Part shown: in pieces, positions 40,903 to 41,011 of the stretch
Numbering within the stretch: the stretch's first letter is position 1
Layout: each line of letters begins with the position of its first letter
Assembly (NCBI RefSeq): GCF_003790525.1
Contig: NZ_CP033635.1
Source of the DNA: Escherichia coli
Lineage (GTDB): Bacteria > Pseudomonadota > Gammaproteobacteria > Enterobacterales > Enterobacteriaceae
Strand: one strand, 5' to 3'
DNA: 64,000 bases
Position numbers and translations under genes: made by a program
The notes under the pieces: model-generated
Database searches by the model: none
The model's input: only the letters and a program-made list of their open reading frames with translations
What the model was told of the DNA's origin: nothing

Positions 40903-40910
40903 TCCGCCCC

Positions 40911-40947
40911 CTGGGTGTATATACAGTTATGCTGTGAGTATATACAG
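40911..40947. promoter_or_regulatory. Tandem LexA boxes (autoregulated lexA-dinF promoter)
   Basis: CTGGGTGTATATACAG (40911..40926) and CTGTGAGTATATACAG (40932..40947), both CTGT-N8-ACAG type on the minus strand. Confidence 0.9.
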
Positions 40948-41011
40948 CAAAAGGCGATTTTGGAACCATAAACTGCACAATAAACCAGAGATTTATCGAA
41001 ATCTGGAAGGG

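Follow-up and report, generated by a model that had tools for sequence, protein, structure and literature searches.

SOS boxes upstream of lexA and between ssb and uvrA in an Escherichia coli genome are identical to the LexA operators of K-12

Three sites in a 64 kb stretch of E. coli DNA, the whole of which (64 000 nucleotides) is referred to here as the window, are almost certainly canonical E. coli LexA operators (SOS boxes), with a LexA dimer expected on each CTG-N10-CAG in undamaged cells. Two of them lie in tandem upstream of lexA, and the third is in the spacer between the divergent ssb and uvrA genes. This analysis established the sites and their heterology index (HI) scores, where they lie with respect to the genes and to the lexA promoter inferred from the sequence, and how well they are conserved.

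40930–40949, minus strand: distal lexA operator (operator II of Kozuch et al.), 20-mer TGCTGTATATACTCACAGCA, 16-mer core at 40932–40947, HI 6.40, identical to K-12
40909–40928, minus strand: proximal lexA operator (operator I), 20-mer AACTGTATATACACCCAGGG, 16-mer core at 40911–40926, HI 8.32, identical to K-12
24005–24024, no strand assigned: single SOS box of the divergent uvrA and ssb genes, 20-mer TACTGTATATTCATTCAGGT, core at 24007–24022, HI 6.98, identical to K-12

Genes in the window and comparison with E. coli SMS-3-5

The window was compared with the genome of E. coli SMS-3-5 (accession number NC_010498.1; coordinates 4581566–4645565, reverse complement) using BLAST, and 99.998% identity was found over the 64 kb with one 1-nt gap. 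A total of 4766 mismatches in a position-by-position comparison with SMS-3-5 was traced by BLAST to this single 1-nt indel, and was dismissed as an artefact. The gap, which is the sole difference from the RefSeq record, is at 6402–6408 near the 3′ end of nrfE, where the window carries six C residues and the record seven. The six-C form places the stop of the nrfE ORF at 6392, before nrfF, and is common to other E. coli, for example strain C. A 1001 bp probe around the lexA operators was 100% identical to SMS-3-5 and matched 5425 of 5426 complete E. coli genomes.

The genes were placed using the RefSeq annotation of SMS-3-5 together with lists of ORFs, and the identities of LexA, DinF, SSB and UvrA were confirmed using NCBIfam equivalog models. 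By the same three sources, the positions assigned to lexA, dinF, ssb and uvrA in a preliminary description of the region were found to be correct.

23317–23853, minus strand: ssb coding sequence, 178 aa (NF006533, 360 bits; RefSeq annotation)
24108–26930, plus strand: uvrA coding sequence, 940 aa (NF001503 and TIGR00630 equivalogs; RefSeq annotation)
38896–40221, minus strand: dinF, downstream of lexA, encoding a MATE efflux transporter of 441 aa (NF007690 equivalog, 910 bits)
40294–40902, minus strand: lexA coding sequence, 202 aa (TIGR00498 equivalog, 289.5 bits; RefSeq WP_000646078.1)

The lexA start codon is at 40902–40900 on the minus strand, and dgkA is located upstream of lexA in both the RefSeq annotation of the SMS-3-5 stretch and the ORF lists. 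The cognate LexA repressor is therefore encoded in the window, its match of 289.5 bits to the TIGR00498 equivalog comparing with a cut-off of 110.95.

Several further elements were identified using Rfam, including a SECIS_2 selenocysteine insertion element inside fdhF (1005–1059, plus strand, 87 bits), which implies an in-frame UGA selenocysteine codon, and a lysine riboswitch upstream of lysC (62498–62694, plus strand, 99.5 bits), which is also annotated in RefSeq. The others were the small RNA sraL (19912–20052, plus strand, 153 bits), STnc430 (60455–60603, plus strand, 84.5 bits) and three copies of the repeat-derived family naRNA4 (3528–3598, 14146–14217 and 48622–48692, minus strand). The RefSeq annotation also includes a hypothetical pseudogene with a frameshift, located between tyrB and aphA at ~29000 (record coordinates 4616378–4616600), and an intact gene for a SopA-family protein between malM and ubiC at ~45700–47300 (record coordinates 4598252–4599832).

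Heterology-index analysis

An E. coli-type LexA operator was taken to be a 16 bp imperfect palindrome, CTG-N10-CAG, with an A+T-rich centre and the consensus TACTG(TA)5CAGTA. The exact pattern CTGT-N8-ACAG matched the window once against 0.62 matches expected, and at least one match was present in 42 of 100 shuffles, hence the count is not significant. The looser pattern CTGT-N9-CAG occurred 12 times against 5.8 expected, finding all three boxes along with eight unrelated sites. As the bare patterns were either insignificant or unspecific, HI scoring was used instead.

The CTG-N10-CAG 20-mers of K-12 and their HI values were obtained from PSOSP Table S1 (supplement of PMC12527982), and the HI matrix was recovered by regressing HI on position and base over 140 published pairs of sequence and HI. 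All 140 values were reproduced with a maximum residual of 5e-5. The recovered matrix was perfectly palindromic and the base counts it implied were integers summing to 38 (19 sites, both strands), and we take this to be the original Berg–von Hippel/Lewis matrix. The six invariant positions were not fittable and were assumed to be ln(38.5/0.5), a value that touches only sites lacking CTG or CAG. Published limits for functional sites are an HI below 15 (PMC11002266) and 13.60, where the low-HI Mean Shift cluster ends (PSOSP Table S1).

Only three 20-mers with an HI below 15 were found in the 64 kb, with values of 6.40 (40930–40949), 8.32 (40909–40928) and 6.98 (24005–24024), and the fourth-ranked value in the window was 15.17. 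The scan, which had been proposed in the preliminary description as the check on its reading, thus placed the three sites well below the functional limits; an HI well above the functional threshold, named there as evidence against that reading, was obtained for none of them. With the base composition of the window, 0.011 sites with an HI of 8.32 or less are expected per 64 kb, and just two of 300 first-order Markov simulations contained any such site. The values also agree with those published for the lexA operators (6.39 and 8.31; PMC2994835) and for the uvrA/ssb box (6.98; PMC9505508).

All three 20-mers are identical, letter for letter, to the K-12 entries in PSOSP Table S1, and each carries the invariant CTG and CAG around a TA-rich centre. 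Every feature of an E. coli-type SOS box that can be tested in sequence was present, namely the palindrome, the HI, the placement, a cognate LexA and conservation. Extra LexA sites at 2770, 11789 and 63057 (HI 15.17–15.79) were considered and rejected, as they are above the threshold and 2.4 sites with an HI of 15 or less are expected by chance. A candidate at 40971 (HI 18.45) was also rejected as a further LexA site because it exceeds the threshold.

Operators and promoter of lexA

On the plus strand, CTGGGTGTATATACAG at 40911–40926 is followed by the spacer TTATG (40927–40931) and by CTGTGAGTATATACAG at 40932–40947, the two boxes being separated by 5 bp and lying 21 bp apart centre to centre. 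These had previously been described as two CTGT-N8-ACAG boxes in front of lexA. The coordinates and the 5-bp gap were upheld, but the exact pattern occurs only at 40932–40947, and the proximal box reads CTGT-N8-CCAG on the minus strand, which is that of lexA. The proximal operator ends 8 nt before the lexA ATG. The features relating to the promoter are as follows.

40937–40965, minus strand: lexA promoter, with −35 TTCCAA at 40965–40960, a 17-nt spacer and −10 TATACT at 40942–40937 (hexamers and spacing read from the sequence)
40971–40990, minus strand: weak CTG-N10-CAG match upstream of the −35 hexamer, CTCTGGTTTATTGTGCAGTT, HI 18.45, above the threshold
40910–40914, no strand assigned: Dcm site CCTGG/CCAGG inside the proximal operator (from the sequence)

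In the direction of lexA transcription, the order on the minus strand is TTCCAA, 17 nt, TATACT and then CACAGCATAACTGTATATACACCCAGGGGGCGGAATG, and the −10 hexamer (40942–40937) is inside the distal box. The transcription start was back-calculated from the target cytosines of two Dcm sites (CCWGG), which have been placed at +17 and +45 (PMC9210283), using the CCWGG sequences at 40910 and 40882 in the window as anchors. The start so obtained is at ~40929–40930, in the 5-bp spacer between the boxes, which would put the distal box at ~−3 to −18 and the proximal box, within the lexA transcript, at ~+4 to +19. A consensus sigma-70 scan called no promoter at lexA and none at uvrA. Both promoters were missed because their −35 hexamers are weak, and their placement therefore rests on weak hexamers and the literature.

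In the published work on these operators, operator II overlaps the conserved RNA polymerase binding sequence, while operator I is downstream and holds the Dcm site (PMC7440846). Point mutations inactivate operators I and II, the repressing ability of the two being equal, and a putative third operator further upstream gives no repression (PMC7440846). Apart from the two operators, the intergenic region upstream of lexA contains a single CTG-N10-CAG, at 40971–40990, and this candidate probably corresponds to the non-functional 'operator III' of the literature. A second Dcm site (CCTGG) was found at 40882–40886.

The shared operator of uvrA and ssb

A single box in the divergent ssb–uvrA region had been reported in the preliminary description, and its coordinates and sequence (CTGTATATTCATTCAG at 24007–24022 on the plus strand, HI 6.98) were found to be correct. 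The distance from the box to the ATG downstream of it is 85 nt for uvrA and 153 nt for ssb. Our own reading of the sequence identified a candidate extended −10 element for uvrA, TGTCATAAT at 24032–24040, the first base of which is 10 bp from the end of the box (9 nt past the box). With this element 10 bp beyond it, the box would cover the −35 region of uvrA. The placement of the box at the uvrA promoter is thus inferred from the sequence and from the literature (PMC9505508).

Three promoters have been described for ssb, of which LexA may repress just one, basal ssb expression is SOS-independent, and older work gave conflicting answers on the inducibility of ssb (PMC9505508). Of the three SOS-controlled transcription units proposed earlier (uvrA, ssb and lexA-dinF), ssb, with its three promoters and SOS-independent basal level, is therefore only partly LexA-controlled (PMC9505508).

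The three units do lie within ~17 kb, as had also been pointed out. However, the proximity of these two of some 30–40 LexA-controlled loci carries no information, because chance predicts it. For 26–40 loci on a 5.07 Mb circle, 2–5 pairs within 17 kb are expected (3.1 pairs for 31 LexA-controlled loci), and clustering of SOS units as a meaningful feature was rejected.

dinF and the lexA–dinF hairpin

The dinF gene is on the same strand as lexA, and starts 72 nt past the lexA stop codon. It has no operator of its own, as the best HI in 40120–40300 was 25.5. A terminator scan detected the following feature in the spacer.

40254–40283, minus strand: terminator-like hairpin in the 72-nt lexA–dinF spacer, whose 12-bp stem is rich in G+C and precedes a U-run

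The predicted RNA fold of this hairpin was −29.1 kcal/mol (z = −3.1), and none of 200 shuffles was as stable. In other Enterobacterales that have dinF behind lexA (loci L033, L038, L081, L105, L048, L022 and L068), a G+C-rich hairpin of unrelated sequence is in the same place. A search of the open-access literature for a lexA–dinF terminator or hairpin found nothing relevant.

Tiling arrays detected one continuous UV-induced lexA–dinF transcript (PMC3009722), ciprofloxacin induces dinF as well as uvrA and ssb (PMC11002266), and reviews list dinF as co-transcribed with lexA. However, with a strong terminator-like hairpin between the genes, co-transcription is unlikely to be complete, and termination after lexA is probably partial. 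The designation of lexA-dinF as one SOS unit is fair as a name, given the shared strand and the published continuous transcript, but has to be qualified by the terminator-like hairpin in the 72-nt gap.

Conservation of the operators

Both the lexA and the uvrA/ssb intergenic regions were present in 5425 of 5426 complete E. coli genomes. Identity of 99% or more was seen in 5347 of 5425 genomes for the dgkA–lexA intergenic region and in 5410 of 5426 records for the ssb–uvrA region. Among the E. coli copies of the lexA operators, the most divergent had a single change. The affected base (40949) is the outermost flanking position of the distal 20-mer and belongs to neither 16-mer core, and by the recovered matrix the change would increase the HI of the distal operator to 8.72. 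In the most divergent ssb–uvrA copy (91.3% identity), a block of ~58 bp that includes the box and the candidate −10 was unchanged. One of the 5426 complete genomes had no match to the lexA region. Among plasmid-labelled records, a lexA match was found in one assembly and ssb–uvrA matches in four, and these look like assembly or labelling oddities.

To extend the comparison across genera, genome contigs were scanned with a back-translated pattern of a conserved 13-residue LexA peptide, which is blind to the DNA upstream, and 120 loci were recovered. Enough upstream sequence was available for 114 of the 120 lexA loci, which are from Gamma- and Betaproteobacteria, and boxes were scored as sites with an HI of 13.6 or less within 200 nt of the lexA start. 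At least two E. coli-type boxes were found upstream of lexA in 93 of the 114 loci, one box in 16 and none in five. The five loci with no such box in these 200 nt are L059, L078 (Haemophilus), L077, L101 and L115, for which a divergent motif, a misplaced start codon or lost autoregulation could be responsible. Over 900 kb, 207 of the 213 hits with an HI of 13.6 or less were upstream of lexA, and the background was 6.8e-6 per position.

Among the lexA upstream regions (L005–L124), the centre-to-centre spacing of the boxes was 21 bp, as found here, in 19 of 25 Enterobacterales-like loci, whereas it was 20 bp in all nine Vibrionaceae-like and 19 bp in all 31 Pseudomonas-like loci. The Vibrionaceae-like and Pseudomonas-like loci otherwise resemble the lexA region of the window in having two CTG-N10-CAG boxes directly upstream of the gene, the proximal one 7–11 nt from the start codon, but their boxes have a higher HI by the E. 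coli matrix (11–13 in Pseudomonas-like loci). In an alignment of 27 distinct Enterobacterales-like lexA upstream regions, column conservation was 0.99 for the distal and 0.91 for the proximal box, compared with 0.70 between the boxes and 0.57 in the sequence that precedes the −35 hexamer. For the uvrA/ssb box, conservation in another genus was taken from the literature on Salmonella (PMC8072944).

Comparison with known systems

Operators I and II of E. coli K-12 have the same two 20-mers (TGCTGTATATACTCACAGCA and AACTGTATATACACCCAGGG) as the lexA region of the window, are separated by the same 5-bp spacer and lie equally far from the ATG. The Dcm site and a dinF gene downstream are also common to both. 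No difference was found in the operators, although the host here is SMS-3-5-like and not K-12. The uvrA/ssb box likewise has the K-12 20-mer (TACTGTATATTCATTCAGGT) with the same HI (6.98) in the same divergent intergenic region, and no difference was detected.

In Salmonella enterica there are also two lexA boxes, at 6 and 27 nt from the ATG, and a common uvrA/ssb box with an HI of 6.99, and lexA, uvrA and ssb are all induced by nalidixic acid (PMC8072944). However, the proximal lexA box of Salmonella, with an HI of 14.48, is weaker than the corresponding box here (8.32), and it was missed by FIMO and added by hand (PMC8072944). The presence of more than one LexA box per promoter is shared with recN and the colicin genes. 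Colicin boxes overlap and impose very tight repression with no basal expression, whereas the two lexA boxes do not overlap, having 5 bp between them, and permit basal expression (PMC2994835).

Alternative explanations

That the matches are chance A+T-rich intergenic palindromes with no regulatory role might be argued from the bare patterns, as one exact match against 0.62 expected is insignificant and the looser pattern gave 12 matches against 5.8. The HI statistics (three sites at 6.4–8.3 against 0.011 expected per 64 kb) and the cross-genus footprint, in which no part of the lexA upstream region is better conserved than the boxes, refute this reading, and it is also at odds with the location of all three sites in promoter regions of known SOS genes and with published mutagenesis showing operator function (PMC7440846), leaving it a negligible probability. 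It is also conceivable that the tandem lexA boxes act as one cooperative unit, in which two LexA dimers 21 bp apart sit on the same face of the DNA and are in contact. The spacing is close to two helical turns, the double arrangement is kept in 93 of the 114 lexA loci, each clade having its own fixed spacing, and cooperativity has repeatedly been speculated on in the literature (PMC7440846). However, when Kozuch et al. compared the double operator with a matched single-operator promoter, induction, kinetics, dynamic range and fitness were the same, and there was no evidence of interdimer cooperativity (PMC7440846). The 19 and 20 bp spacings of the Pseudomonas-like and Vibrio-like loci shift the helical phase by 35–70 degrees, which argues against one strict protein–protein geometry, and a fixed spacing could also result if the −10 hexamer has to be covered by one box and the start of the transcript by the other. 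A cooperative unit is therefore considered unlikely, and two separate canonical operators remain the preferred reading of the lexA boxes.

Two further alternatives concern what the operators control and when. If the uvrA/ssb box served uvrA only, ssb would in practice not be an SOS gene, and there would be two LexA-controlled units instead of three. This would be in keeping with LexA perhaps repressing one of three ssb promoters (PMC9505508), with the 153 nt between the box and the ssb ATG (about −170 by the published count), with older work in which three microarray studies and several immunoassays found no ssb induction (PMC9505508), and with SSB protein not being significantly enriched after ciprofloxacin (PMC11002266). 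Transcript data point the other way, as SOS-dependent induction of ssb was measured by RT-qPCR after UV and gamma irradiation and ssb was overexpressed in a constitutively SOS-induced mutant (PMC9505508), ssb mRNA rose by a log2 fold change of 1.82 after ciprofloxacin (PMC11002266), and ssb of Salmonella was up 9.6-fold with nalidixic acid (PMC8072944), so that a box devoted to uvrA is improbable. Growth-phase dependence of lexA autoregulation, brought about by Dcm methylation in the proximal operator, is suggested by the CCTGG at 40910–40914 within the operator and by its methylation specifically in stationary phase and its retention in dcm+ relatives (PMC9210283). However, this stationary-phase methylation was without effect on lexA expression, 5mC likewise having no effect on LexA binding, RNA polymerase activity or UV sensitivity, and the reverse effect, hindrance of Dcm by LexA, has been reported (PMC9210283). 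More distant Enterobacterales also have AACAGG where E. coli has CCCAGG, and a role for methylation is very hard to credit. The preferred reading is thus still that of three canonical LexA operators, with ssb partly under LexA control.

Regulation by LexA and significance

LexA binding, repression and induction at the three sites are expected from published K-12 experiments on identical sequences. In an undamaged cell, one LexA dimer would occupy each 16-bp CTG-N10-CAG palindrome. With the distal box over the −10 hexamer and the proximal box over ~+4 to +19, RNA polymerase would be excluded from the lexA promoter or blocked, and by this steric repression LexA would limit its own synthesis (negative autoregulation). 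In the absence of an operator, dinF would be expressed by read-through from the lexA promoter. The uvrA/ssb box would overlap the promoter region of uvrA and one of the three promoters of ssb, so that uvrA would be clearly repressed while ssb would keep a high LexA-independent basal level.

RecA–ssDNA filaments trigger the self-cleavage of LexA, relieving repression. After DNA damage, formation of these filaments would thus lead to loss of LexA, the boxes would be emptied and transcription would rise. Direct binding of LexA at these sites was reportedly demonstrated by the footprints of Brent and Ptashne, Little et al. and Sancar et al. (1981–82), and by the ChIP-chip study of Wade et al. in 2005. 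UV has been shown to induce uvrA (PMC3009722), and nothing was found against LexA control of lexA and uvrA.

The widespread retention of the lexA double operator with its clade-fixed spacing, and the structurally conserved lexA–dinF hairpin, may reflect regulatory functions that are yet to be pinned down, though we regard this as a long shot. If true, the hairpin could act as an attenuator and determine the ratio of lexA to dinF, or could yield a stable monocistronic lexA mRNA.

The SOS operators of lexA and uvrA in K-12 have been characterised since the early 1980s. As the sites in the window are identical to these long-characterised operators, they were already known and nothing new about the biology follows. 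The value of the result is as a positive control, in which a reading of the sequence alone recognised three textbook LexA operators, and the exact HI scan separated them cleanly from the background (6.4–8.3 against 15.2 or more). The sites are the core of SOS autoregulation, at lexA, and of damage-inducible nucleotide excision repair, at uvrA.
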